Of a stretch of DNA of 43,329 nt, positions 5,573 to 43,239 are shown piece by piece; the stretch's first letter is position 1; each line of letters starts with the position of its first letter. Source of the stretch: a virus. Location of the stretch: the UHGV virus genome UHGV-1380059; one strand, given 5' to 3'. Position numbers and translations under genes: made by a program. Below the pieces are notes generated by a model. The model did not search any database. It was not told the origin of the DNA and saw only the letters and a list, made by a program, of their open reading frames with translations.

Positions 5573-5734
5573 TTATTTTATTCTTACTGTAGCTTCTTTA
5601 CAGTCAATAATTTTATAGTGTTTCTTGGGATATGTTAACCTAAATTCGTTGATAGCGTCCCTCATTGTTTCAGCTAGGTAGGTCAACTGGTAGTTCTGAC
5701 CGTTACGCCTAGCCAGTATGACAAAAGTTGTCAT
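5573..5734 (-). CDS. hypothetical protein (53 aa)
   Basis: Manually read 'MTTFVILARRNGQNYQLTYLAETMRDAINEFRLTYPKKHYKIIDCKEATVRIK'; RBS GGAGGTGAAACA. Confidence 0.35.
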   Translation of the reverse strand: MTTFVILARRNGQNYQLTYLAETMRDAINEFRLTYPKKHYKIIDCKEATVRIK

Positions 5735-6294: not shown

Positions 6295-6524
6295 TCTAAC
6301 ATCTCCTTTATTTTGATGTAGTCAGCTCGTAACTCAGCTAGTACTTTTTCGTCATCTGTATTTACCCAGTTAAACATCTCGTCCATCTTTTCGTCTAGCC
6401 ATGCTGAAACTGTTTCAATATCTTCTTCTGTTTCAATGTCTGCCATTTCGTCTACGAAGTCGCTCGCTAGTTTGTCCATTTTCTTTTGTAGTTCGTTGTA
6501 TTTTTCATGTGTCATTGTTGTCAT
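6288..6524 (-). CDS. hypothetical acidic protein (78 aa)
   Basis: ORF track. Confidence 0.5.
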   Translation of the reverse strand: MTTMTHEKYNELQKKMDKLASDFVDEMADIETEEDIETVSAWLDEKMDEMFNWVNTDDEKVLAELRADYIKIKEMLEC

Positions 6525-6578
6525 TGTTTTTTCCTCCTCTTATTTATGAACTAATTATATCATGCATAGAAACCAGTG

Positions 6579-6740
6579 TCAACTGTGTTGTTGATAAATA
6601 TTATTATAAAAATCAATTATTTTAATATCACTTTGTGATTCAACAATTCTTCTACATTTATCTGGACACATTAGATATAACCCATAACTTATCCAGTTAT
6701 TATTTATTTTATAGAATACTTCTACTTGTCCCTCTCTCAT
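6579..6740 (-). CDS. hypothetical protein (53 aa; start moved to MREGQ)
   Basis: ORF track 6579..6770; the ATG at 6740 has GGAGGA upstream. Confidence 0.45.
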   Translation of the reverse strand: MREGQVEVFYKINNNWISYGLYLMCPDKCRRIVESQSDIKIIDFYNNIYQQHS

Positions 6741-7082: not shown

Positions 7083-7425
7083 ATGTCACTAATTTTGTGT
7101 TTTTGTCACTATATGACATAGAAATGACTTTTTCAAAATCGCTGTATCCCTTGATACTCTAGGGAAGAGACCAGTTTAGTGACAAAATGACAAAAAAAGT
7201 GCCATACTCTTTATATATAATATATAATATATGCTAATACGCATATTATTTACTTTTTTAGTATTAACTATAAAATATTTTGTCATTTTGTCATTATAAA
7301 AATAAGAATGTAGATATAACAAGGGTTACAGCGATTTTAGGTGTAAAAAGTAGTGACAAAACGATGACAAAAACAAGCCATTTAGTGACAAAATGACCAT
7401 TTTAGGCTGACTTTTTGTCACTAAT
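7083..7425. repeat. Iteron array (~20-bp unit 'TTAGTGACAAAATGAC') in both orientations flanking an AT-rich tract at 7201-7265
   Basis: Forward copies at 7176-7197, 7351-7372 and 7382-7401. Reverse copies at 7083-7094, 7101-7119, 7277-7296 and 7413-7425. 'tatatataatatataatatat' lies between them. Confidence 0.7.
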
Positions 7426-8053: not shown

Positions 8054-8550
8054 TGCCTGAAGAGTGGACTGACGTTAAAGACTATGAGGATAAATATCAA
8101 GTGAGTAGTCTTTGAAGAGTGAGAAACAAAGTTACAAATAAGGTGTTGAAACACGCATTGAACAAATCTGGATATCATAGAGTTAACCTATATAATGAAT
8201 CTGGAATGAAAAGTAAATTCGTTCACCGTCTAGTAGCAGAAGCGTTTATTCCTAATACTGATAATAAACCTGAAGTTAATCATATAGATGAAGATAAAAC
8301 TAATAATAGTGTTGATAATTTGAACTGGATGACTAGATTAGAAAATGCCAATTATGGAACAAATAATGAAAGAATGGCTAAAGCTAAAAGCATTCCCATC
8401 ATTGCCACTAATCTAAAAACTGGTGAATCTAAACAATTCAATAGTACTAAAGAATGCGCTAGACAATTAGGTTTAAATCATTCAAACATTACACATGTTC
8501 TAAAAGATAGATACAAACACACTGGTGGATACACGTTTAAATATATTTGA
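8053..8550 (+). pseudogene. NUMOD4/HNH_3-type homing endonuclease interrupted by an in-frame TGA (8113-8115); the conserved HNH His is replaced by Tyr
   Basis: 'MPEEWTDVKDYEDKYQVSSL*RVRNKV...' is in a single frame. The other copies have Gly (GGA) at the stop position. 'ENANYG' here versus 'ENxNHG' in the intact copies. Confidence 0.6.
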
Positions 8551-8768: not shown

Positions 8769-9161
8769 ATGCCTAAACGTAAGTGTGCAGTGGCTTCATG
8801 TCGCGCATATGTCACGCTACCTGAGCGCTACTGTGACGCACATCAAGGGTATAACAATAGCCAGTACAATAAGCACGTAAGATACAACGAAGACAACAAG
8901 AAGTACAGTACCTTCTATCATTCAACCCAATGGAGGAACACACGTAAAGCCAAGCTAATGGAGCAACCACTATGTGAGGTATGCTTGGCACAAGGCAAGT
9001 ACACCAACGCTAACATGGTTCACCATAAGATAGAATTAAGAAGTCCAAATGGATGGAAACATAGACTTGATTTAAATAACTTAGAGTCAATCTGTTACGA
9101 GTGTCACAACAAGGAAGAACATAGCTACAGTTGGAAAAATAGAGGTAGAGAACAGCGTTAA
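8769..9161 (+). CDS. HNH endonuclease, classical family, terminase-associated in cos-type phages
   Basis: 'CEVC...HHKIEL...N...ICYECHNKEEH'; positioned upstream of TerS/TerL. Confidence 0.8.
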   Translation: MPKRKCAVASCRAYVTLPERYCDAHQGYNNSQYNKHVRYNEDNKKYSTFYHSTQWRNTRKAKLMEQPLCEVCLAQGKYTNANMVHHKIELRSPNGWKHRLDLNNLESICYECHNKEEHSYSWKNRGREQR

Positions 9162-9697: not shown

Positions 9698-9753
9698 TTG
9701 ACAACCTCCTTTATTTGTGCTATTATAATAGTATGGAAGAGGAGGTTTTATTT

Positions 9754-10257
9754 ATGAAAGAAATTTGGAAAGATGTAGAAGGATATGAAGGGTTGTATCA
9801 AGTAAGTAATTTTGGTAATTTATATTCCAGCTACGTTAAACGTAAATTACAATTGAGTTTAGATAAATATGGATACAAACAAGTGATACTTGTAAAGAAC
9901 GGTGTTCGTAAACGACACCTTTTACATCGTATGGTAGCACAAGAGTTCATACCAAACCCTGAAAACAAACCACAAGTTAATCATATTGACGAGAATAAAA
10001 CAAATAATACTGTATCAAACCTAGAATGGGTTACAAGTAAAGAGAATATTAATCACGGAACTAGAACAGAACGACAAATATACACTCAAAGAATTATTCA
10101 AAAATCAAAGCCTGTTATTTGTTCAAATGGCGTGATTTACCGTAGCACAAGGGAAGCTAGTAGGCTATTAGGATTAGATAATGGTAGTTTAAATAAAGTT
10201 CTAAAAGGTAAGCGTAAAACAGTAGGAGGCTACACATTCAAATATAAGGAGGTGTAA
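9754..10257 (+). CDS. HNH homing endonuclease (NUMOD4 + HNH_3)
   Basis: 'MKEIWKDVEGYEGLYQVSNFG', 'HRMVAQEFIPNPENKPQVNHIDENKTNN', 'ENINHG'; the start is the ATG at 9754 with GAGGAGG upstream. Confidence 0.8.
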   Translation: MKEIWKDVEGYEGLYQVSNFGNLYSSYVKRKLQLSLDKYGYKQVILVKNGVRKRHLLHRMVAQEFIPNPENKPQVNHIDENKTNNTVSNLEWVTSKENINHGTRTERQIYTQRIIQKSKPVICSNGVIYRSTREASRLLGLDNGSLNKVLKGKRKTVGGYTFKYKEV

Positions 10258-18972: not shown

Positions 18973-19638
18973 ATGACAGTATTAGTGTATGAACATATTA
19001 CGCCTAATGAGAAACGATATATAGGTATTAGTAAAAATATACATGAACGATGGAGAAAGCATGGACTAAGTTCATCATATAATAAATATTTTACAAAAGC
19101 GGTTAAAAAATATGGGTGGGATAATATAGAACATAATATTATAGCTATATGTGATACTTATGAAGAAGCGTGTAATATAGAAATTAAATATATAAGTATA
19201 TTTAATAGTACAGACCCACGTTTTGGATATAATATAACTCAAGGTGGAGAGTTACTAACTGGGGAAAACCATCCTGCGTTTGGTAGGTTTGTCAATAAAG
19301 ATGAACGACGTAGACGAAGTATTAAGGCTAAAGAAGTGTTTAAAAATAGGGATTATACTGGAAAAAACAACAGCTTTTATGGTAAGCAACATAGTGATGA
19401 GACTAAGCGTAAAATAGGTAAAGCTAACTCAGGTAAACGTAGTGATGAATATAAACGTAAAATGGCAGAAGTATTGGGTACACCAGCATTCAACATATAC
19501 TATAACGGTGAGTACATTGAAACAATGTATAATCAATCTGAGTGCGCTAGAAAATATAACTTACATGTAGCATCAGTCAATAGGTGTTTACTTGGTAAAC
19601 AACATACAACAAACGGATATACTATCAAACCAGTGTGA
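18973..19638 (+). CDS. GIY-YIG homing endonuclease with NUMOD3 repeats
   Basis: 'VYEHITPNEKRYIGISKNIHERWRKH' (GIY-YIG), and 'NHPAFGRF' / 'NSFYGKQHSDETKRKIGKANSGKRSDEYKRKM' (NUMOD3-like). Confidence 0.8.
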   Translation: MTVLVYEHITPNEKRYIGISKNIHERWRKHGLSSSYNKYFTKAVKKYGWDNIEHNIIAICDTYEEACNIEIKYISIFNSTDPRFGYNITQGGELLTGENHPAFGRFVNKDERRRRSIKAKEVFKNRDYTGKNNSFYGKQHSDETKRKIGKANSGKRSDEYKRKMAEVLGTPAFNIYYNGEYIETMYNQSECARKYNLHVASVNRCLLGKQHTTNGYTIKPV

Positions 19639-24255: not shown

Positions 24256-24783
24256 ATGAAAGAAATTTGGAAAGACATTGAAGGATATGAAGGACTTTAT
24301 CAGGTAAGTAGTTTTGGAAGAGTTAAGAGTCTAAAGCACTATAAGAAAGATAAAATACTTAAAGAAAGAGTTACAGGTAACGGTTATTTATCAGTAGCAT
24401 TATTTAGAAATTCAGTTAGAAAAGAAAATAGGCTTCACCGTCTAGTAGCTCAAGCTTTTATACCAAACCCAGAAAATAAACCTGAGGTTAACCACATTGA
24501 CGAAAACAAACTCAATAACGATGCGACTAATTTAGAATGGGTTACCTCAAAAGAAAATAGTAATCATGGAACTAGAAACCTCAGAATACATCAAAACAAC
24601 GGTGTAACATATAATAGAAAACCAATTATATGTGTAACAAATGGTGCAACATATACAAGCTTAACTGAGGCTTGCAAAAGTTTGGGAGTAACAAAACCCC
24701 ATGTATGTTCAGTATTAAAAGGTAAACGTAAGACAACAAAAGGATATGTTTTTAAATACTTAAACGAAGGAGATAATAAATAA
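24256..24783 (+). CDS. HNH homing endonuclease (NUMOD4 + HNH_3)
   Basis: 'MKEIWKDIEGYEGLYQVSSFGRV', 'HRLVAQAFIPNPENKPEVNHIDENKLNN', 'ENSNHG'; inserted between the tape measure and Dit genes. Confidence 0.85.
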   Translation: MKEIWKDIEGYEGLYQVSSFGRVKSLKHYKKDKILKERVTGNGYLSVALFRNSVRKENRLHRLVAQAFIPNPENKPEVNHIDENKLNNDATNLEWVTSKENSNHGTRNLRIHQNNGVTYNRKPIICVTNGATYTSLTEACKSLGVTKPHVCSVLKGKRKTTKGYVFKYLNEGDNK

Positions 24784-30539: not shown

Positions 30540-30806
30540 ATGTATATTGAAGAATTTAAAAAGGCTTATATGCAAGAGTGTTTAGTTGAAGGTAAGCCAT
30601 TGAAAGGTAGAGTTAAAGAATTATTTGATTTGTGTATACTAAATGACTTTGGTGGGGATAACGTATCAATGGATTACTTGATTCAGTCACTCGCTGATGA
30701 ATATTCAGGTAATACAAACAAGACTGATAATGAAATACTACAAGATAAATTAGACACACTATCAGAAAAGCTTGATTATCTAACTCAACAATTATTAAAT
30801 AAATAA
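30540..30806 (+). CDS. hypothetical protein (88 aa)
   Basis: ORF track. Confidence 0.5.
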   Translation: MYIEEFKKAYMQECLVEGKPLKGRVKELFDLCILNDFGGDNVSMDYLIQSLADEYSGNTNKTDNEILQDKLDTLSEKLDYLTQQLLNK

Positions 30807-30807
30807 T

Positions 30808-30838
30808 AAAAAGCCCTCTATTTGAGGGCTTTTTATTT
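30808..30838 (+). terminator. intrinsic terminator
   Basis: 'aaaagccctc tattt gagggcttttt'. Confidence 0.75.
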
Positions 30839-30867
30839 GCTTTCAAACGGATAACTACCCACCTACT

Positions 30868-30910
30868 AAAATTTAAACGCCTTAGAATGCTCGTGAGAGA
30901 CACACTATTT
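30868..30910. repeat. Direct repeat copy A (23-bp perfect core 30881-30903 'CTTAGAATGCTCGTGAGAGACAC')
   Basis: Identical 23-mer at 32677-32699. The flanks 'aaatttaaa' and 'ct.ttt' are also shared, giving ~42 nt with 5 mismatches. Confidence 0.85.
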
Positions 30911-30922
30911 CACCCATATTGA

Positions 30923-30931
30923 TGTTATACT
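30923..30931 (+). promoter_or_regulatory. extended -10-like promoter TGtTATACT upstream of the lysis genes
   Basis: 'gatgttatact'. Confidence 0.35.
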
Positions 30932-30983
30932 TAATACAGACCTAGGAAACGAGGTGAAAAATGACTGATTAGGAGTGTCTTGT

Positions 30984-31262
30984 ATGAACTTAAATGATAA
31001 GGAGTTTGTTTCATTAAAAGAACAGTTGGCAAGAATTGAGGTAAAATTGGATGATATACCTGAGATTAAAACCGACTTGAAAGACTATGGAAGTCGCTTA
31101 GAACGTCAATCAGAAAAAGCAGATAAGGCGTACAGCATGTCCATGCAAAATAGAGAAGGCTTAGCAGACCTGAAAAACAGCTACACATGGTTAACACGTA
31201 CTACAGTTGGAGCCGTTATAGGCGCACTGATTAGTATAGGACTATCATTATTTATGAACTAG
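30984..31262 (+). CDS. XhlA-like lysis-associated membrane protein
   Basis: Coiled-coil N-terminus plus a single C-terminal transmembrane helix 'TVGAVIGALISIGLSLF'; the ATG at 30984 has AGGAG upstream. Confidence 0.5.
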   Translation: MNLNDKEFVSLKEQLARIEVKLDDIPEIKTDLKDYGSRLERQSEKADKAYSMSMQNREGLADLKNSYTWLTRTTVGAVIGALISIGLSLFMN

Positions 31263-31275
31263 GAGTGATAAAAAC

Positions 31276-31557
31276 ATGAAAAATATTAACTGGAAAGTTC
31301 GTTTCAGCAAAGACAACCTAACATTTATTTTACGTTTCGTAAGCGCATTAGCAATTCCAATTTTAGCATACTTTGGTTTGAAGTTTGAAGATATTACATC
31401 GTTTGATACATTATTGGATGTGTTAGTCAGAGCAGTAAGTAATCCATATGTATTAGGATTAACTGTGATTAACGCATTGAATATGATTCCAGACCCAACA
31501 ACCAAAGGTATTACAGATAGTGAAAAAGCATTGAACTATACAGAACCAAAGAAATAA
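31276..31557 (+). CDS. holin (phage_holin_1-like)
   Basis: 93 aa with a transmembrane helix 'FILRFVSALAIPILAYF', directly upstream of the endolysin. Confidence 0.6.
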   Translation: MKNINWKVRFSKDNLTFILRFVSALAIPILAYFGLKFEDITSFDTLLDVLVRAVSNPYVLGLTVINALNMIPDPTTKGITDSEKALNYTEPKK

Positions 31558-31573
31558 GAAAGAGAGTGATAAT

Positions 31574-32599
31574 ATGATAGAAATCATCAATAAAACAGTC
31601 ACACGTGGCGTGGCTGGACGTAGAGGCGGAGCAGTCAAAGGTGTAGTATTTCATAACACATGGGGTAACTCAACAGCTAAACAAGAAGCCAATCGTTTAG
31701 CAACAATGAACAACAATCAATTGGCAGCAGGATTTGCGCATTACTACATTGATAAAAACACGATCTGGCGCACAGAAGACACATTCAATGGTGCATGGCA
31801 TACTGCAAACAGTGATGGCAATATGAACTACATTGGTTATGAAGTGTGTGGTAACGATCAAACACCACTAAAAGACTTCTTGCAAGCGGAAGAAAATACG
31901 TTCTGGCAAATTGCGCAAGATTTGAAATACTATGGTTTACCAGTCAATCGTAATACTGTACGTTTACATCCAGAGTTTTCAGCAACTCAATGTCCTAAAC
32001 GTTCATTGATCATTCACACTGGCTTCAACTCAACACAAGCTCAGCCAGCTAACGTCATTAATGCTATGAAGGATTATGTTATTGGTAAAGTGAATAAGTA
32101 TTACAATAACTCTAGTTTGAAGCCAGACGGCAAAGCACCATCCACAAGTGCGCAAACACCTCCAAGTGGTGCTAATGTAAAACCAGTGACTCCAAGTCAA
32201 CATGATAAAGCCGTTGCTGCTACAAAACCTAAACATCAAGGCAATGCGTGGGGTAAACTTGACTACTTTAACGGCCATGGTAAAGATCAAATTCGTGTAG
32301 CGGGTTGGTTAGTACCAGATAAAGCTACTGGACCAATTGGATCATATGCTTATGTGATCTTCATGCAGCATGGGACAAACAAAGAGCTGACACGCATTCA
32401 GTCTGCTGGAATTAAACGTCCAGACGTTAAGAAAGCATACGGTTATCAAGGTGGACAAGAACTTGGTTTTGATGTGACGGTTAAGAAAGCTCAGTTCAAA
32501 GGTAAAAAAGTAGATGTCATCTTACGTAGAGCAAATAAAACCAATGGAGAAGGTGCAGTGAACGATGTGCGAATTGACTCAATCTATCTAAGTTTATAG
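31574..32599 (+). CDS. endolysin: N-acetylmuramoyl-L-alanine amidase (Amidase_2) plus a C-terminal cell-wall-binding domain
   Basis: 'GVVFHNTWGNSTAKQEA...AHYYID...WHTANSDGNMNYIGYEVCG'; a low-complexity linker; a 150-aa C-terminal domain. Confidence 0.85.
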   Translation: MIEIINKTVTRGVAGRRGGAVKGVVFHNTWGNSTAKQEANRLATMNNNQLAAGFAHYYIDKNTIWRTEDTFNGAWHTANSDGNMNYIGYEVCGNDQTPLKDFLQAEENTFWQIAQDLKYYGLPVNRNTVRLHPEFSATQCPKRSLIIHTGFNSTQAQPANVINAMKDYVIGKVNKYYNNSSLKPDGKAPSTSAQTPPSGANVKPVTPSQHDKAVAATKPKHQGNAWGKLDYFNGHGKDQIRVAGWLVPDKATGPIGSYAYVIFMQHGTNKELTRIQSAGIKRPDVKKAYGYQGGQELGFDVTVKKAQFKGKKVDVILRRANKTNGEGAVNDVRIDSIYLSL

Positions 32600-32604
32600 A
32601 AAAA

Positions 32605-32634
32605 AGACACTCTTAATTGAGTGTCTTTTCTTTT
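32605..32634. terminator. bidirectional intrinsic terminator between the convergent endolysin and kinase genes
   Basis: 'agacactc ttaatt gagtgtct' with A/T runs on both sides. Confidence 0.7.
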
Positions 32635-32663
32635 GTATTTAAGTGAGTAATCATCTTACTTTA

Positions 32664-32706
32664 CAAATTTAAAGTGCTTAGAATGCTCGTGAGAGACACG
32701 CTTTTT
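32664..32706. repeat. Direct repeat copy B (core 32677-32699); overlaps the last 6 codons and stop of the kinase gene
   Basis: Revcomp reads '...tgt ctc tca cga gca ttc taa' = CLSRAF*. Confidence 0.85.
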
Positions 32707-33372
32707 CTAGAAAATAGCTGTGTTCTTCACCACTAATGGCTTCTACATGAAATAATTCATCAAGTATTGTCATTAGTACTTCTCTACGATGTTCTTGATT
32801 ATTTACATAGTCAAGAGATGTCACATCTATAATTAATTTAGGAAAGCTCAACTCTTGATTCATCCATTCTTGATAATTAGCATGATGATTTCTGAAGTAT
32901 TCATAGAGTTCAGAATCTTCTTCAACTTTCTCAAAGTCTCTTGCACGTCTATTAATGCGTCTTATTTCTTCATCAAAACTACAATTTAACACAATCATTA
33001 AATCAGGTGATTTCTTTGGTAATGGTTCTAACTCTTTCAGCATACGATTTAATAGTTTTGTGTAGACATCTAACTCCAGTTTGTTCACAGAACCTTCATC
33101 ATATAACTGCTTTAAAAAGATAGAATCCTCATAAATTGAACGATCAAGAATACCATTTTTAACACTCATAGCCTTCTGAATAAGTTCAAAGCGCTTTGAC
33201 AACATGTCAATTTGAAATAGAAAACCATACTTTTTCTTATCTGCATAGAACTTCTCCAGCAGAGGATTTTCTTCAACTGGTTCATACACTGCTTTAGTTT
33301 CTAGTAATTCACTTAATAGTTCTGTCATTGAGGACTTACCTATCCAATTGGTCCTGCCAATGTGATCAACAC
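32678..33372 (-). pseudogene. deoxynucleoside kinase (dAK/dGK family) with a 1-nt frameshift inside the P-loop
   Basis: GTG at 33372 (GGAGGA 6 nt upstream) reads 'MLITLAGPIG' then TAG. The -1 frame continues 'IGKSSMTELLSELL...DRSIYED...'. The consensus 'GPIGxGKSSLT' needs one more nucleotide between GGA and GGT near 33340-33343. Confidence 0.6.
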
Positions 33373-33384
33373 TAATCTTCCTCC

Positions 33385-33606
33385 CTATTTAAATTCTTCC
33401 CATTTATTTGGTGCAAACCCCATACTCACAAACTCACCATCTTTAAACACTACTGGAAGCGTTTTTAGATTCATAGTAATTAATTCATTTAACCCTTCTA
33501 AGCTATCATCCACATTGATCTCAGTGAAAGTGTGTCCTTTTCCTTTAAACCAATTCTTCGTCATTTTGCAAGGCATACAGTTGTTTTTAGTATACATTTT
33601 GATCAT
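33385..33606 (-). CDS. NrdH-like glutaredoxin
   Basis: 'MIKMYTKNNCMPCKMTKNWF' CxxC redoxin; the start is at the ATG at 33606 after AGGAGGAAATAAA. Confidence 0.7.
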   Translation of the reverse strand: MIKMYTKNNCMPCKMTKNWFKGKGHTFTEINVDDSLEGLNELITMNLKTLPVVFKDGEFVSMGFAPNKWEEFK

Positions 33607-33635
33607 TTTATTTCCTCCTATTATTTTATGAATTA

Positions 33636-33665
33636 AGTATAACACCTCAGTTAAGAGGTGTCAAG
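33636..33665 (-). promoter_or_regulatory. Promoter TTGACA-N17-TGtTATACT with a palindromic spacer 'ACACCTCagttaaGAGGTGT'
   Basis: Minus strand reads 'TTGACAcctcttaactgaggtgtTATACTtaattcataaaataataggagg' then the NrdH ATG. Confidence 0.6.
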
Positions 33666-36858: not shown

Positions 36859-37371
36859 TTACTTTACTCCTTCATTTAAGTATTTGAATGTGTATCCTCC
36901 AGTTTGTTTATATCTACCTTTTAACACTTTTGCAATGTTTGATTTATCCAAACCTAATTGTCTAGCACATTCTTTTGTACTATAGTATTCTTTAGACTCA
37001 CCAGTTTTGAGATTAGTTGCAAGGATTGGAATACTTCTTGTTTTAGCCATTCTTTCAGTACGTGTTCCGTGGTTTGAATTTTCTTTTGCGGTAGACCATT
37101 CTAAATTTGATAATTTATTGTTTGTTTTATCCTCGTCTATGTGGTTTACCTCTGGCTTGTTTTCTGGGTTTGGAATGAACGCTTGTGCTACTAGACGATG
37201 CATTTTCTTATTAGATTTAATACCATTTTTATATAACTTAACTTGTAGATATCCCCATGAATCTTCACTACCTTTCAAAATAAGATTCTTATACAAACTA
37301 TGAACTCTACCCAAGTTACTTACTTGGTACAACCCTTCATATCCTTCAATATCTTTCCAAACTTCTTTCAT
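36859..37371 (-). CDS. HNH homing endonuclease (NUMOD4 + HNH_3)
   Basis: 'MKEVWKDIEGYEGLYQVSNLGRV', 'HRLVAQAFIPNPENKPEVNHIDEDKTNN', 'ENSNHG'; the start is the ATG at 37371 with GAAGGAGG upstream. Confidence 0.85.
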   Translation of the reverse strand: MKEVWKDIEGYEGLYQVSNLGRVHSLYKNLILKGSEDSWGYLQVKLYKNGIKSNKKMHRLVAQAFIPNPENKPEVNHIDEDKTNNKLSNLEWSTAKENSNHGTRTERMAKTRSIPILATNLKTGESKEYYSTKECARQLGLDKSNIAKVLKGRYKQTGGYTFKYLNEGVK

Positions 37372-37462
37372 AAATAAAACCTCCTTCTTTATCTTACAAG
37401 TTAATTTTAACATTGATACAAAAAGAAGTCAACCATTTAGGTCAACTTCTTTCACATTTATT

Positions 37463-38155
37463 TTAGAACGGTAATTCCTCGTCTGATGCTACTTCTTTCT
37501 GGTCATTTGGGTCAAGCGCTTGTGCCTCCAACCACCCAAATGGAGATTTTGGATCCAACATGTTCTTATTTACAGTACAATCCACAACCATTCCAATAGC
37601 CATGTCTGCTGTATCCCATGTTACATTTACATCTTCAAACAATTCGTTAAAGCGTGCTTTAGCTTTTGCAAGTTTAGCTTGGTTAGGAATAAATTTATTT
37701 AATTTCTCAATATAAACTCCTGAATTAAAATTGAATGAGTAGTATTTTCCTTCATGCTCAACAACTACGGCACGTCCTTTTGCACTGTCTTTTATTTCAA
37801 CAATTGGTACTTGTTTTAATCGTTTTAGTGAAACCAGTGGTTTCTCAATCTTCTTAAATGATGTTCCTTCTTCAAAGTAGGCTTTTCCAGTCTCTTCGTC
37901 TACGTACATTTCTAATTCTTTATCTTCAAGATTATCAAACGATCCACCTAACATTTCTAAGGCTTTAGCTAATCGTTCTTTACCTTTTACATCGTCATCT
38001 GTGAAGTCATTCCACGTTTTAGAGTCTTTATCATATGTTTGTTTAAATACTGCAGCTTCATAGATAGCGCTGTAGTCCTCACTGGCTACCTGTAATTTCA
38101 CACTAATATCATCTTCCTCTGCGCTAACAATAATTACTTTTTTCAATTCTGACAT
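37463..38155 (-). CDS. hypothetical replication/recombination protein with an SSB-like acidic C-terminal tail (…DEELPF)
   Basis: The C-terminus 'ASDEELPF' mimics the SSB/gp2.5 tail; the start is the ATG at 38155 with GGAGGA upstream. Confidence 0.4.
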   Translation of the reverse strand: MSELKKVIIVSAEEDDISVKLQVASEDYSAIYEAAVFKQTYDKDSKTWNDFTDDDVKGKERLAKALEMLGGSFDNLEDKELEMYVDEETGKAYFEEGTSFKKIEKPLVSLKRLKQVPIVEIKDSAKGRAVVVEHEGKYYSFNFNSGVYIEKLNKFIPNQAKLAKAKARFNELFEDVNVTWDTADMAIGMVVDCTVNKNMLDPKSPFGWLEAQALDPNDQKEVASDEELPF

Positions 38156-38237
38156 TTTAATTTCCTCCAATTAATTTGTTTTATTTCATCTCTTACAAAA
38201 TCTATTATATCATATATTCCCTTACTTGTGTAGCATG

Positions 38238-39419: not shown

Positions 39420-39643
39420 AGCTCCTCCTTCAGCAAATCCAAATCTTCATCACTCAAGCGGTCAATCAGTTCAATATCTTCTTCACGTACTTCTTCAAAT
39501 CGTGCTGCAAACTCTCCGCTTTCAACTAAGACAAGAATGTTTCCAAACTTGTCTACGTGTTGTACTGTACCCTCATCAACTTGTGCTGCGTGCATTCCAT
39601 AATTGTTTGTGAATTTTACTAAATCTCCATATTGATATTTCAT
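39416..39643 (-). CDS. hypothetical acidic protein (75 aa; start moved to MKYQYG)
   Basis: ORF track 39416..39682; the ATG at 39643 has GAGGAGGAAATAAA upstream. Confidence 0.45.
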   Translation of the reverse strand: MKYQYGDLVKFTNNYGMHAAQVDEGTVQHVDKFGNILVLVESGEFAARFEEVREEDIELIDRLSDEDLDLLKEEL

Positions 39644-39678
39644 TTTATTTCCTCCTCTGTCTTTATGTTTTAATTGTA

Positions 39679-40449
39679 TCATCTTACTAACCAGTTGTCA
39701 ACATCTTTTTTGGTAATTTTTCCTTTTGAACGTTTAATCAACCCATCAAAAGTGCGATATGTTTCTGACTGGTGTAGTTCTACATTAATTGCTCCTGGCT
39801 TCGCAAATTTGTCAACAAATAACTCTCTTTCTGTTGTACTTAAATGGCGATATGAACCTGAGCTGAATACATCATAGCCAGTGTGCTGTTTTGTAGATTC
39901 GTAAAATTCAATAACTTTAGGGTCGTAATTAGCTTCAAGTAATAGTGTATCAATCTTTAAAGCATTGTCCAAAAGATACTTTTCGTAGTCTGTCATTGTA
40001 CTTAAATCAGTGGCAAACAGAGTATTTTGTTTAGGTGTCTCCATGATGAAACCATGTGTTTCTGTATACTCTTCCCCAGCTCCATGATAATTCTGAAGGG
40101 TTGTGAACTTAACTTCACCTATTTGGAATTGGAAGTCATCTTTGAATATAAGGTCTAACAGTGGTAAGTTACGCTTCTTCAAGTTGTCTTGTACTTCCTG
40201 GTTTCCTAATATTTTAATGTGTGGAAAGTTCTCACGTATTTTCTTGTATGTTGTATATACAAGATGGTCTTGGTGACGATGAGTTATTAAAATGAATTGC
40301 TTGTTAAATAAGTATGGCTCAACATATTTATATGGCCGCCCTATGTCAATTAAGAATCCTAAATTATCGTAATAGATAGAAGCGCAGTTACCTTTACTTC
40401 CTGTATAGTGAATATCAAAACTAAATTCGTTCAATGTGCCAACCTCCAA
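39679..40449 (-). CDS. metallo-beta-lactamase-fold hydrolase
   Basis: 'LITHRHQDH' HxHxDH motif. Confidence 0.65.
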   Translation of the reverse strand: MEVGTLNEFSFDIHYTGSKGNCASIYYDNLGFLIDIGRPYKYVEPYLFNKQFILITHRHQDHLVYTTYKKIRENFPHIKILGNQEVQDNLKKRNLPLLDLIFKDDFQFQIGEVKFTTLQNYHGAGEEYTETHGFIMETPKQNTLFATDLSTMTDYEKYLLDNALKIDTLLLEANYDPKVIEFYESTKQHTGYDVFSSGSYRHLSTTERELFVDKFAKPGAINVELHQSETYRTFDGLIKRSKGKITKKDVDNWLVR

Positions 40450-40482: not shown

Positions 40483-40947
40483 TCATTTATTTCTATCCTC
40501 CCATCTAAACCCTTCCAATTCCCATAATTCTTTACCAAGCTCTTTTGCTTTCTTCCAATTATCTTTATCTATTGCGTTGTTAATTGCAATGATTAAGGCC
40601 TGTCGTTTTGGCTCTACTTTCTTTCTAAAAGGACGTTCCACACGTTCTACCCCTTCTTTTGGATTAATAGCGTAGCCAATGTTGGTATAGTGACTATTTT
40701 GTACGTTGCCATCTTTAAAATATAAATATCCTAAGTTATGCTCATTTTTAACAAACATATCTGCCACTAACTGAGAGATATAGAACTTACGTGACTTCTT
40801 ATGTGATCCATCAAGAACCACGTACATCTTTCCATTCTTTGGATCAACTAGTTCATTTTCATATCGTTCTTTATCTAGATGAAACACATGACCCTCATCT
40901 GTTATGGCGTACATATCATACGGCTCGTTTAATGGTTCAAATCTCAT
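40483..40947 (-). CDS. truncated, His-less paralog of the NUMOD4/HNH endonucleases (154 aa)
   Basis: 'YVVLDGSHKKSRKFYISQLVADMFVKN' aligns with 'Y...NG.RK..RLHRLVAQAFIPN'. 'LYFKDGNVQNSHYTN' sits where 'VNHIDENKTNN' is, so His becomes Phe. No C-terminal DNA-binding domain. RBS GGAGGA. Confidence 0.4.
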   Translation of the reverse strand: MRFEPLNEPYDMYAITDEGHVFHLDKERYENELVDPKNGKMYVVLDGSHKKSRKFYISQLVADMFVKNEHNLGYLYFKDGNVQNSHYTNIGYAINPKEGVERVERPFRKKVEPKRQALIIAINNAIDKDNWKKAKELGKELWELEGFRWEDRNK

Positions 40948-41699: not shown

Positions 41700-42209
41700 T
41701 TATTCCTCCTTATATTTAAATGTGTAGCCTCCAACATGATTATGTTTACCTTTTAATACTTCGCAAATTGAACCGTTTGATACGTGTAGCAATGCTCCGG
41801 CTTCACTTATACTATTGTAAGTATTTCCATTTGAACAGATCACAGGCTTACTACGTGACGCTTTACTTCTTTTAATGCCTGAACCGTGTCTTATATTATC
41901 CAAATGTGATACCCATTCTAGATTACTTGATGTATTATTACATTTATTTTCATCAATATGATTTACATCAGATAAATTCAAGGGGTTATTTATAAAATAG
42001 GTCGCCACTAACCTATGAACCCTATAACACTTTCGTTCTCTTGAATTTATAATATGGATGTAATAATACCCACTTGTCTTATTCTTAAATGGTTTTAAAA
42101 TTCTATTTGTTTTAATATTTTTTATCCTACCCAAACTACTCACTTGATAATTTGGAAAATCTTTAATTGTCCGCCATTCTTCGCAATTCACGTTTTCTAA
42201 CTGACTCAT
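41700..42209 (-). CDS. HNH homing endonuclease (NUMOD4 + HNH_3)
   Basis: 'EEWRTIKDFPNYQVSSLGRIKN', 'HRLVATYFINNPLNLSDVNHIDENKCNN', 'DNIRHG'; strong RBS GAGGAGG; the start overlaps the PrimPol 3' end by 47 nt. Confidence 0.8.
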   Translation of the reverse strand: MSQLENVNCEEWRTIKDFPNYQVSSLGRIKNIKTNRILKPFKNKTSGYYYIHIINSRERKCYRVHRLVATYFINNPLNLSDVNHIDENKCNNTSSNLEWVSHLDNIRHGSGIKRSKASRSKPVICSNGNTYNSISEAGALLHVSNGSICEVLKGKHNHVGGYTFKYKEE

Positions 42210-42906: not shown

Positions 42907-43182
42907 TTAATACCTCTCAATCTTATATGCTGTAATGTCTTTTAAGAATATTGTGTAACCCTCTTCTGTATCAACTCTTAACCTTGGGTTTCCTACTGTG
43001 TATTGCTTAAATGCTCCGTCAACAACTTGAGGTCTTGCCTCTGCAATTTTTTTCTCAATTTCTGCAAGTTGTGACCCATGTACATTTACATAGAATGTTA
43101 ATTCTTGCGGTACATTAGTTACAAATCCAGTTATTTTGTATCTTGAATTTGGGTGTGGGTCTTTAAATGTATTGTAATTCAT
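42907..43182 (-). CDS. hypothetical protein (91 aa)
   Basis: ORF track; RBS AGAGGAGGAAGTAAA. Confidence 0.5.
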   Translation of the reverse strand: MNYNTFKDPHPNSRYKITGFVTNVPQELTFYVNVHGSQLAEIEKKIAEARPQVVDGAFKQYTVGNPRLRVDTEEGYTIFLKDITAYKIERY

Positions 43183-43210
43183 TTTACTTCCTCCTCTTAT
43201 TTATGTACTA

Positions 43211-43239
43211 AGTATAACACCCCATTTAAGGGGTGTCAA
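43211..43239 (-). promoter_or_regulatory. Promoter TTGACA-N17-TGtTATACT with a palindromic spacer 'ACACCCCatttaAGGGGTGT'
   Basis: Minus strand reads 'TTGACAccccttaaatggggtgtTATACTtagtacataaataagaggagg' then the ATG at 43182. Confidence 0.6.

Follow-up and report, generated by a model that had tools for sequence, protein, structure and literature searches.

Intrinsic terminators and promoters joined in short, directly repeated cassettes have been described in T4-like phages as promoter-early stem-loops (PeSLs; Arbiol et al. 2010, PMC2839356; Comeau et al. 2014, PMC4122927). PeSL copies recombine with each other and mark the places where genes are gained, lost, or replaced. Also relevant are activator-dependent late and lysis promoters of Gram-positive systems, such as PA3 under phi29 p4 and the promoters served by the RinA/ArpU/LtrC/Alt superfamily (PMC3753634), which have a weak or absent -35 and an upstream element at a fixed distance. 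The locus considered here has features of both, and no description of its repeated element was found in the literature searched.

The window is the whole 43,329-nt stretch analyzed, UHGV virus genome UHGV-1380059. A 23-mer, CTTAGAATGCTCGTGAGAGACAC, occurs exactly, on the plus strand, at 30881-30903 (the upstream copy, U) and at 32677-32699 (the downstream copy, D), as the first-pass annotation had reported. These are its only 2 places in the window, with no third even at 3 mismatches, and the chance expectation from 100 shuffles is 0.00 matches. Recurrence at many other positions, named in that annotation as evidence against a special role, was thus not seen within the window. The similar flanks noted earlier extend the repeat beyond the ~42 nt first given, to 83 nt at 71% identity (30829-30911 versus 32625-32707), and a further 30 nt align without gaps (16/30 identical, empirical p = 0.003). 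In this extension TGTGTTCTT of D stands opposite the extended -10 of U, TGTTATACT. With an nhmmer profile of the 81-nt unit, the copy number is exactly two both in the window and in the whole dArtagnan genome. With no matches expected and only two copies per genome, a chance or generic motif is ruled out. The features of the locus are as follows.

30805..30837, unstranded: T1, bidirectional intrinsic terminator closing the tail/receptor-binding operon (14-bp stem, then a T run)
30829..30911, plus: U unit, consisting of terminator T-tail, ~43-nt spacer, 23-mer box, and ACTATTTC (repeat finding; nhmmer E = 2e-20)
30881..30903, plus: U box, CTTAGAATGCTCGTGAGAGACAC (exact match)
30904..30911, plus: ACTATTTC, conserved extension of the U box at the -35 position of the lysis promoter (diversity 0.010)
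30923..30931, plus: extended -10 of the lysis promoter, TGTTATACT, without a -35; hexamer at 30926-30931
30961..30972, plus: leader mini-ORF ATGACTGATTAG with its own GAGGTG Shine-Dalgarno (read from the sequence)
30984..31262, plus: xhlA (Pfam XhlA, E = 4.5e-14)
31276..31557, plus: holin (Pfam Phage_holin_1, E = 4.7e-22)
31574..32599, plus: endolysin, N-acetylmuramoyl-L-alanine amidase (Pfam Amidase_2, E = 6.4e-16)
32602..32629, unstranded: T2, bidirectional terminator where late and early operons converge (11-bp stem, flanking A/T runs)
32625..32707, plus: D unit (repeat finding; nhmmer E = 1.5e-20)
32677..32699, plus: D box, identical to the U box; its minus strand gives CLSRAF and the stop of the kinase ORF
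32719..32727, plus: TGTGTTCTT, degenerate form of the extended -10, spaced from the box as in U (16/30 identical, p = 0.003)
32678..33372, minus: deoxynucleoside kinase gene with a P-loop frameshift at ~33343 (alignment with five relatives)
33385..33645, minus: glutaredoxin-like gene (Pfam Glutaredoxin)

The interval between the copies consists of the XhlA, holin, and endolysin genes, now supported by Pfam, and terminator T2, in agreement with the first reading of it as a lysis module. Each repeat copy begins at the T-tail of a bidirectional terminator, and U lies, as proposed, after the terminator of the tail operon. Both boxes are 43-47 nt past a terminator. The box skeleton is CTTAGAATnnTCnTnnGAnnCAC (23 nt), with two conserved blocks on either side of a 12-nt spacer that varies more; nA(G/T)AAT is kept in every copy, and neither dyad nor direct-repeat symmetry was detected in the box. 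A host or prophage origin was tested with a 21-mer, which has no match among 185,579 representative bacterial and archaeal genomes. In the window the stop codon of the leader mini-ORF overlaps the xhlA Shine-Dalgarno; relatives have a mini-ORF in the equivalent spot that finishes in ATGA at the start codon of xhlA.

Two genera have xhlA-holin-endolysin enclosed by the U/D pair, that of the window (E. faecium siphophages, e.g., IME-EFm5, dArtagnan, and 9184) and Efquatrovirus, with 136 phage records and 238 places; phiSHEF5 and LM99 are counted there as having one place, yet carry a D copy. Genomes have two copies, or three in 9184 and Vaquero. The third 9184 copy is within the DNA polymerase gene and was seen only in that phage. 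Single copies occur far from the lysis genes in other Enterococcus phage groups (Saphexavirus and 9181-like). U and D are more alike inside a genus (identity 0.90 and 0.83) than either is to its counterpart in the other genus (U-U 0.76, D-D 0.73), and 9184 carries the ..GAGGT.. and TTTGGATGR variants in all its copies. Such shared lineage-specific variants indicate concerted evolution. By these sequence comparisons the pair is ancestral to the two genera and not the product of a recent event.

U is the best-conserved noncoding block of the region in all relatives, including phages that lack the kinase. Among 24 unique relatives, nucleotide diversity is 0.036 in the U box and 0.010 in ACTATTTC, versus 0.176 in the left 50 nt, which points to purifying selection stronger on U than on its flanks. 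The distance from the box end to the hexamer of the extended -10 (TGnTATAMT) is exactly 22 nt in all unique U copies of the two genera (43/43), and a simple scan finds no sigma-70 -35 for this promoter. Because the distance to an extended -10 without a -35 is fixed, we assign U to the upstream half of this promoter. A constant place with respect to a core promoter that itself lacks an element is what would be looked for in an operator or activator site. Other late promoters of the window have nACACA 17 nt from the -10; at the lysis promoter ACACA is 21 nt away. ACTATTTC follows every U copy in both genera and also the single Saphexavirus copy, and a 72-kb phage contig with a flank only ~67% identical carries an exact box. 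The 22-nt spacing is not kept by the single copies of Saphexavirus and 9181-like phages. No data on transcription start sites of these phages were found in the literature searched.

D lies beyond the terminator of the lysin gene, at the convergence of late and early transcription, and carries only a degenerate, unusable -10. It is the stop point of the last gene of the leftward early operon, which is the kinase in the window and glutaredoxin in Efquatrovirus; elsewhere an NMN transporter or glycosidase gene terminates within it. As first noted, the downstream 23-mer does encode the ...CLSRAF* end of the minus-strand kinase ORF. D-box substitutions in relatives are mostly nonsynonymous, with a premature stop arising from one of them. 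Alignments to kinase homologues elsewhere end at residues ~214-219 of 231, and it is the remaining tail that is read out of the element. For annotation, the last ~15 codons of the kinase, and the terminal ones of glutaredoxin in Efquatrovirus, are shown to be read-through into a putative regulatory element rather than part of an enzyme. The window's kinase also differs at the P-loop, where five aligned relatives have ccaattggggtagg and the window has ccaattgg-atagg; the ORF list gives only 216 aa, from an internal ATG. This frameshift probably reflects a pseudogene or a sequencing error.

Block 1 of the D box, CTTAGAAT, shows no variation across 9/9 Efquatrovirus D copies, in which it is noncoding and adjoining DNA has a diversity of 0.15-0.23; Efquatrovirus U copies keep it unchanged as well. 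In the window's genus its diversity in D is 0.060, versus 0.13-0.16 for its neighbors.

On balance, and with modest confidence, we favor the interpretation that the pair is a conserved cis-regulatory box within a duplicated terminator-promoter cassette that also serves as a recombination substrate. U and D would be paralogous copies of a short cassette (terminator T-tail, ~45-nt spacer, and 23-nt box), and the arrangement around xhlA-holin-endolysin would predate the split of the window's genus from Efquatrovirus. The box may be bound by a protein, either an activator or a repressor and from either phage or host, that would control the -35-less lysis promoter, and hence the timing of lysis. 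D may be a second site for the factor that acts at U (an auxiliary operator, roadblock, or insulator where transcription converges), unless gene conversion is what keeps it similar to U. The pair could incidentally offer homologous recombination a foothold, by analogy with PeSLs. Consistent with the favored reading, a laboratory recombinant of Aramis and dArtagnan had swapped ~3 kb running from tail-module into lysis-module sequence (PMC11210271). A more specific version, in which U and D are co-evolving putative sites for one factor that would repress or activate the lysis promoter at U and insulate or loop the cassette at D, where late transcription meets early, is speculative, and we consider it rather unlikely. 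If true, it would imply a dedicated lysis-timing switch in >100 Enterococcus siphophages, with reuse of the box in at least two unrelated Enterococcus phage groups.

Potential regulators were sought in the window. No PHROG or Pfam match to helix-turn-helix, sigma, or RinA/ArpU/Alt-type proteins was found among about 45 ORFs; the window also has many small ORFs without an assigned function, and the factor may come from the host. This negative result counts against the favored reading, as do the asymmetry of the box, the unusable -10 of D, the viability of D-less phages, the flank-like diversity of the D box in the window's genus, and the single copies that depart from the 22-nt spacing. A 235-aa early protein was considered as a sigma factor and rejected because its model (pLDDT 82) has a beta-rich, tandem OB-like fold; the modeled structure suggests that it is probably a single-stranded-DNA-binding protein. 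The annotated "sigma factor" of 9181 has no homologue in the window, and scanning Saphexavirus Ef2.2, 9181, dArtagnan, and the window with a relaxed bipartite motif revealed no further copies of the box; a phage sigma factor was rejected. Consensuses of known host sites (sigma-H, sigma-B, ECF, ComX, LexA, CcpA, and CodY), compared with the box by eye, do not appear to fit it. Also rejected were a small peptide encoded through the box on either strand, as the frames are not conserved between flank types, and a pairing of GAGACAC with the xhlA ribosome-binding region, seen in one fold but absent from 9184 and Efquatrovirus.

Among the alternatives, the one that survives best, although we consider it improbable, is that the pair is purely a recombination relic: a terminator and promoter were duplicated once, the box has no function, and gene conversion alone explains the likeness of the copies. 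U and D have demonstrably exchanged sequence, to judge from the tandem duplication of the unit in Vaquero, the 98% identity of U and D flanks in Ef6.4, and the D copies with a U-type ACTATTT right flank in LG62 and L013. The whole D box in the window's genus evolves about like its flanks (0.149 versus 0.151), and DELF1, vB_EhiS_268, and EF36P1-3 are viable without D, as a relic would predict. However, across phages diversity is 5 times lower in U than in the flank beside it, the 22-nt spacing is exact in all 43 copies, the box is exact in the 72-kb phage despite a diverged flank, and CTTAGAAT is invariant in noncoding D copies while the adjoining 12 nt vary. Gene conversion alone is therefore not enough.

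A further possibility, to which we assign little probability, is that the box is itself a weak promoter, with TAGAAT as a -10 or CTTAGAAT and ACTATTTC as a -35/-10 pair read by some specificity factor yet to be recognized, or that it acts as a signal in read-through RNA shortly past the terminators. Consistent with this are its two-block architecture with a more variable 12-nt spacer, the nA(G/T)AAT present in every copy, and the position of both copies 43-47 nt past a terminator. The blocks also appear to resemble the SPO1 late promoter consensus (CGTTAGA / GATATT). However, none of the flank types has a -35 at 16-18 nt before TAGAAT, and PHROG and Pfam scans of about 45 window ORFs detected no sigma-like gene. 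Saphexavirus Ef2.2 comes from a group in which a phage sigma factor is annotated (in VD13), yet it has just one copy, so the box does not define a promoter class there. As for an RNA element, neither an Rfam hit nor a consensus structure or covariation was found: Rfam covariance models gave sub-threshold, terminator-driven hits only, RNAalifold gave -1.4 kcal/mol with 0 compensatory pairs, and the box region showed no significant folding, the z-scores being driven by the terminators only.

The first-pass annotation had proposed that the lysis cassette was inserted or exchanged as a unit at the repeat and that U is an orphan duplicate of the kinase 3' end. That proposal, too, now seems a poor bet, and for recent events it is largely refuted. 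In its favor, the direct repeats enclose precisely the lysis genes and their terminator, Campbell-type integration of a one-copy circle would yield such a layout, and single copies do exist away from lysis genes in other Enterococcus phage groups. Parts of the recombination signature also stand, namely the nonrandom repeat, the mosaic boundaries, and the recombining copies. The variable DNA lies outside the pair, however, with receptor-binding genes to the left of U and a kinase, kinase remnant, NMN transporter, or glycosidase to the right of D. The lysis module is the constant part: content between the copies is invariant, and the replacement boundaries are at T1, where megablast homology to most relatives starts (window 30810-30816), and just right of D.

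U is near-invariant in DELF1, vB_EhiS_268, and EF36P2, which lack both kinase and D, and this contradicts its origin as a kinase-end duplicate, as do the overlap of D with another gene in Efquatrovirus and the lack of homology between the kinase tail and other kinases. The expected empty site, with the tail module abutting the kinase at a single 23-mer, was not found; a lysis cassette lies between the copies at every locus examined in the two genera. An att-like site and a duplicated target site, both suggested earlier, are unsupported because PHROG and Pfam scans of the ORFs tested, and annotated relatives, include no integrase or recombinase, and no transposase is present; the repeat, at 83 nt, is moreover imperfect, and none of the inverted-repeat pairs listed are terminal inverted repeats at the interval ends. 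The annotation had set against its own proposal a conserved regulatory element independent of the lysis genes. This is partly what we find, in that the box lies in a conserved regulatory region and other Enterococcus phage groups have single boxes well away from their lysis genes.

Least likely, and in our view very doubtful, is that the box is the target of one of the many I-HmuI-like HNH homing endonucleases of these phages, whose cutting would drive gene conversion and mosaicism. HNH/NUMOD4 enzymes are among the few proteins detected in both the window and the single-copy phage groups (others that hit are a kinase, a glutaredoxin, one small ORF, and a tail protein), and the window has at least 6 homing-endonuclease genes. 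In LY0322 an HNH gene has entered the stretch from T2 to the D flank, and in L030 and 9181 the single box has HNH genes at a distance of ~200 nt. This reading nevertheless leaves the fixed -10 spacing unaccounted for, the box-adjacent HNH genes of L030 and LY0322 are only 32% identical, and no HNH gene adjoins U or D in the window or most relatives.

Efquatrovirus and the IME-EFm5/dArtagnan group are leading therapy candidates against vancomycin-resistant enterococci. The box described here, sharply conserved and rigidly spaced from a lysis promoter that has no -35, provides a concrete handle for finding a lysis-timing regulator and for engineering lysis timing. The cassette pair also marks swap points, for receptor-binding genes on the left and nucleotide-metabolism accessory genes on the right, which is useful for prediction and design of recombinants.

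Compared with PeSLs, U likewise combines terminator and promoter in one unit (T1 and the extended -10), and D has T2 with a degenerate -10; the loss of the -10 from the downstream copy is a departure from PeSLs. PeSLs occur in dozens of copies and in hyperplastic regions, whereas here there are two (three in 9184 and Vaquero). Between PeSL copies are dispensable ORFans, as opposed to a conserved, essential lysis cassette, and the strong sigma-70 early promoter of PeSLs contrasts with a -35-less extended -10 that follows a 31-nt box and serves late genes. In a PeSL-type cassette, recombination between copies would be expected to yield circles or deletions; here recombination is read indirectly, from sequence (the tandem unit of Vaquero and homogenized flanks of Ef6.4).

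The resemblance to Gram-positive activator-dependent late and lysis promoters would extend to the separate control of late functions, although homologues of the activators (p4 and RinA/ArpU/LtrC/Alt) were not detected in the window. Here the box would govern the lysis cassette only, rather than the whole late operon, and a second copy lies downstream of the cassette. The looping operators lambda OL/OR, lac O1/O2, and deo provide a third comparison. Unlike these, the box lacks dyad symmetry, and helical phasing is not conserved (separations of 1742-1796 nt). Purely by analogy with them, there are two sites, about 1.65-1.8 kb apart, of which one overlaps a promoter and the other would be a dispensable auxiliary site, and the two vary in step across lineages.

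The exact 23-mer CTTAGAATGCTCGTGAGAGACAC (the box) reported by the first-pass annotation was confirmed at two positions, the only ones in the window with up to three mismatches allowed; the chance expectation is none. The repeat itself is longer than was recognized, extending over 83 nt at 71% identity, and each copy starts at the T-tail of an intrinsic terminator. Weaker ungapped similarity continues over the next 30 nt (16/30 identical, empirical p = 0.003), and the downstream copy carries TGTGTTCTT at the exact position of the extended -10, TGTTATACT, of the upstream copy. The genes between the copies are indeed a lysis module, encoding XhlA, a Phage_holin_1 holin and an Amidase_2 endolysin.

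The repeat pair and neighboring features
30805-30837, bidirectional terminator T1, before U
30829-30911, plus strand, upstream copy U (box 30881-30903)
32602-32629, bidirectional terminator T2, before D
32625-32707, plus strand, downstream copy D (box 32677-32699)
32678-33372, minus strand, deoxynucleoside kinase gene, ending in D

Nucleotide identity of the region to virulent Enterococcus faecium siphophages is 80-90% (9184, RG1, IME-EFm5, IME-EFm1, dArtagnan/Aramis, KEN18-22, LG62 and EF36P1-3); DELF1, vB_EhiS_268 and Bp29 are more distant matches. In most of these, homology starts at window position 30810-30816, at T1, and the receptor-binding genes on the left are replaced. The DNA to the right of D also differs.

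DNA to the right of D
Kinase: most relatives
Kinase lost between CACTAAT microhomologies, D kept: IME-EFm1, KEN20, KEN21
D and kinase lost between ATCA microhomologies, kinase ribosome-binding site and GTGTTGAT remaining: EF36P2
Glycosyl hydrolase: LG62
Kinase and NMN transporter: L013, L020, L022, L038 (loci of relatives)

The variable DNA is thus outside the pair. Insertion of the lysis module at this sequence had been proposed, but no relative shows an empty site in which the tail module abuts the kinase with a single copy; all loci examined contain the lysis cassette. In a published evolution experiment, the ~3 kb swapped in an Aramis x dArtagnan recombinant extended from the tail module to within the lysis module (PMC11210271).

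U had also been read as an orphan duplicate of the kinase gene end. This does not hold, as U is present in DELF1, vB_EhiS_268 and EF36P2, all of which lack both kinase and D. Alignments to kinase homologues from 130 other phage records stop at residues ~214-219 of 231, and in some relatives the slot is taken by a 267-aa kinase, which is longer and has a C-terminus of its own, with an NMN-transporter gene after it; therefore, the kinase reads into the element, not the reverse. For the kinase tail, most substitutions in D are non-synonymous (CISRTF, CLSREF, CTSRAF, CFSRAF), and one in relatives creates a premature stop. The window kinase has a frameshift in its P-loop (33340-33349; ccaattggggtaggtaaa, GPIGVGKS, in relatives versus ccaattgg-ataggtaag in the window) that yields ...GPIG* and leaves the remainder of the protein in another frame. 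From the sequence, this is a pseudogene or else reflects an error in sequencing a G run, and it fits the dispensability of the slot in relatives.

The pair is an old feature, shared across the family. The U region of E. faecalis phage Max (Efquatrovirus) has matches at 238 places in 136 phage records, two places in most of them; phiSHEF5 and LM99 scored one place, yet each has a D copy. In Max, LY0322, Ef6.4, Alamo, IME196, Vaquero, VEsP-2, phiSHEF5 and LM99, U occupies the interval from T1 to xhlA, and D directly follows T2, overlapping the 3' end of a glutaredoxin gene because there is no kinase. U and D carry a common box variant within a genus, GCTCGTGAGAGACAC in the genus of the window versus (GC/CG)TCCTNTGAMRCAC in Efquatrovirus, and U-D identity within genera is 0.90 and 0.83, with U-U 0.76 and D-D 0.73 between genera. 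All three copies in phage 9184 carry a variant particular to that phage. The third, a flank and box at 5616-5685 of its locus (nhmmer E = 1e-8), falls within the DNA polymerase gene, in frame and in the part for the variable C-terminus; its reading frame is other than that of the kinase through D, and it is unique to 9184 within the phage collection.

Several patterns are direct traces of exchange between copies. The U and D flanks of Ef6.4 are 98% identical across 50 nt; Vaquero has a tandem duplication of the unit (terminator 3' half, flank and box; L050 3895-4056, 77-nt period) upstream of the lysis promoter, with a D-type flank on both copies; and the D copies of LG62 and L013 have the U-type right flank ACTATTT. 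LY0322 has an HNH endonuclease gene between its lysin terminator and the D flank (L046 4682-5212), an insertion that lengthens the U-D distance to 2198 nt.

The U box was compared across 12 annotated relatives together with 23 IMG/VR and 7 metagenome loci, and is exact or one to two bases off in nearly all, DELF1, vB_EhiS_268 and EF36P2 included; the exception is 9184, with six differences.

Nucleotide diversity (24 unique sequences of the window's genus)
U box: 0.036
8 nt after the U box (ACTATTTC): 0.010
50 nt left of the U box: 0.176
D box: 0.149, about equal to the D flank (0.151)

The end of the U box is exactly 22 nt from the start of the -10 hexamer in 43/43 unique U copies from both genera, despite variability in the 11 nt between ACTATTTC and the TG of the extended -10. 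No -35 element was found for this lysis promoter. If transcription is assumed to start ~7 nt past the -10 hexamer, the box plus ACTATTTC would span about -57 to -27. The skeleton of positions kept in both genera is CTTAGAATnnTCnTnnGAnnCAC. In Efquatrovirus, CTTAGAAT is invariant in 9/9 U and 9/9 D copies. It is non-coding in D, next to 12 nt whose diversity is 0.15-0.23.

In other late promoters of the window, nACACA lies exactly 17 nt upstream of the extended -10 (TGnTATAAT); the ACACA of the lysis promoter is 21 nt away. By sequence, the nACACA class probably comprises middle or late promoters. The early leftward promoters, a 62-nt repeat family, have a perfect TTGACA plus TGTTATACT.

Promoters in the window
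7463, 9443, 10747, 10815, 14948, 17649, 18323, 41437, plus strand, nACACA promoters
38212, minus strand, nACACA promoter
6521-6582, 33603-33664, 39640-39701, 43178-43239, early leftward promoters

The xhlA leader contains a mini-ORF, ATGACTGATTAG (30961-30972), with a strong GAGGTG Shine-Dalgarno and a stop that overlaps the xhlA Shine-Dalgarno. In relatives (e.g., L038 and L040) it is ATGAATAGGAGTGTTTTGCTATGA, terminating on the xhlA start codon. This arrangement suggests translational coupling or control of xhlA.

Other Enterococcus phage groups have single box copies in large non-coding regions, far from lysis genes; the box was not found in representative bacterial genomes.

Single box copies
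72-kb contig related to phage 9181 (L030): exact box, flank only ~67% identical
9181, orthologous spot: diverged
Saphexavirus Ef2.2: CTCAGAATGCGCCTGTGCGACAC plus ACTATTTC

Each of these regions (L030 4361-5240, L052 2492-3223 and L044 7061-8287, in the 72-kb 9181-like phage and Ef2.2) spans 700-1200 nt of non-coding DNA with many short repeats (TATAGTA, AAAAATTTTCTCATTTTTTATT) and resembles an origin or control region. In the window, inverted and direct repeats built on TGTCACTA/TAGTGACA cluster at 7083-7405, in the intergenic DNA from which the early and late gene blocks diverge, and may mark an origin or operator region.

Three features suggest that the box is a DNA site read by a protein: its constant distance from a promoter that has no -35, the strong purifying selection on it, and its reuse in unrelated phages that share a host genus. 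A homing-endonuclease target is possible: HNH genes adjoin the box in LY0322, the 72-kb contig and 9181. Against this, identity between these enzymes is only 32%, and cleavage at the box would leave the box-to-(-10) spacing unexplained. The lysis cassette may have entered by an ancient insertion of Campbell type, but the present data do not require this. With just one or two box copies in each genome, a promoter class read by a phage sigma factor is unlikely. An RNA element is unsupported.

The window has an unusually high load of homing-endonuclease genes, of I-HmuI-like NUMOD4/HNH_3 and other HNH types. One gene matches PHROG homing-endonuclease families, one of these GIY-YIG, and several are mutually paralogous (repeat families D1, D5, I1-I8).

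Homing-endonuclease genes
1606-1956, 8119-8550, 8769-9161, 18973-19638, 40483-40947, 41700-42209
9715-10257, 24256-24783, 36859-37413, by paralogy

For a protein-read site, the most likely candidate reader would be a regulator of the lysis promoter. Among about 45 window ORFs scanned against PHROG and Pfam, no transcription factor was identified. Few proteins are detectably common to the window and the single-copy phages: chiefly I-HmuI-like HNH endonucleases, the kinase and glutaredoxin, with one small ORF and one tail protein. The largest early protein of no assigned function, conserved, 235 aa long and without a Pfam family (37463-38170, minus strand), is modeled by AlphaFold (pLDDT 82) as a beta-rich, OB-like fold with two barrel-like halves. 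It weakly matches the tandem OB-fold DNA binders HIN-200, ModE DiMop and PrgE SSB, and probably serves the phage as its single-stranded-DNA-binding protein. D, the second copy, has no working promoter. That its first block is conserved suggests continued use, for example as an auxiliary operator or, at the convergence of late and early transcription, as a roadblock or insulator. Its likeness to U could instead be maintained by gene conversion from U.

No description of the U/D element was found in the literature searched. Among described systems, the nearest is the PeSL of T4-like phages, a composite terminator/promoter cassette that occurs as repeats, flanks variable genes and undergoes recombination (PMC2839356, PMC4122927). 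Like PeSLs, the U/D element acts as a recombination substrate. It differs in copy number, lacks both the strong sigma-70 early promoter and dispensable content between copies, and has, in addition to the features of PeSLs, a specific conserved box.
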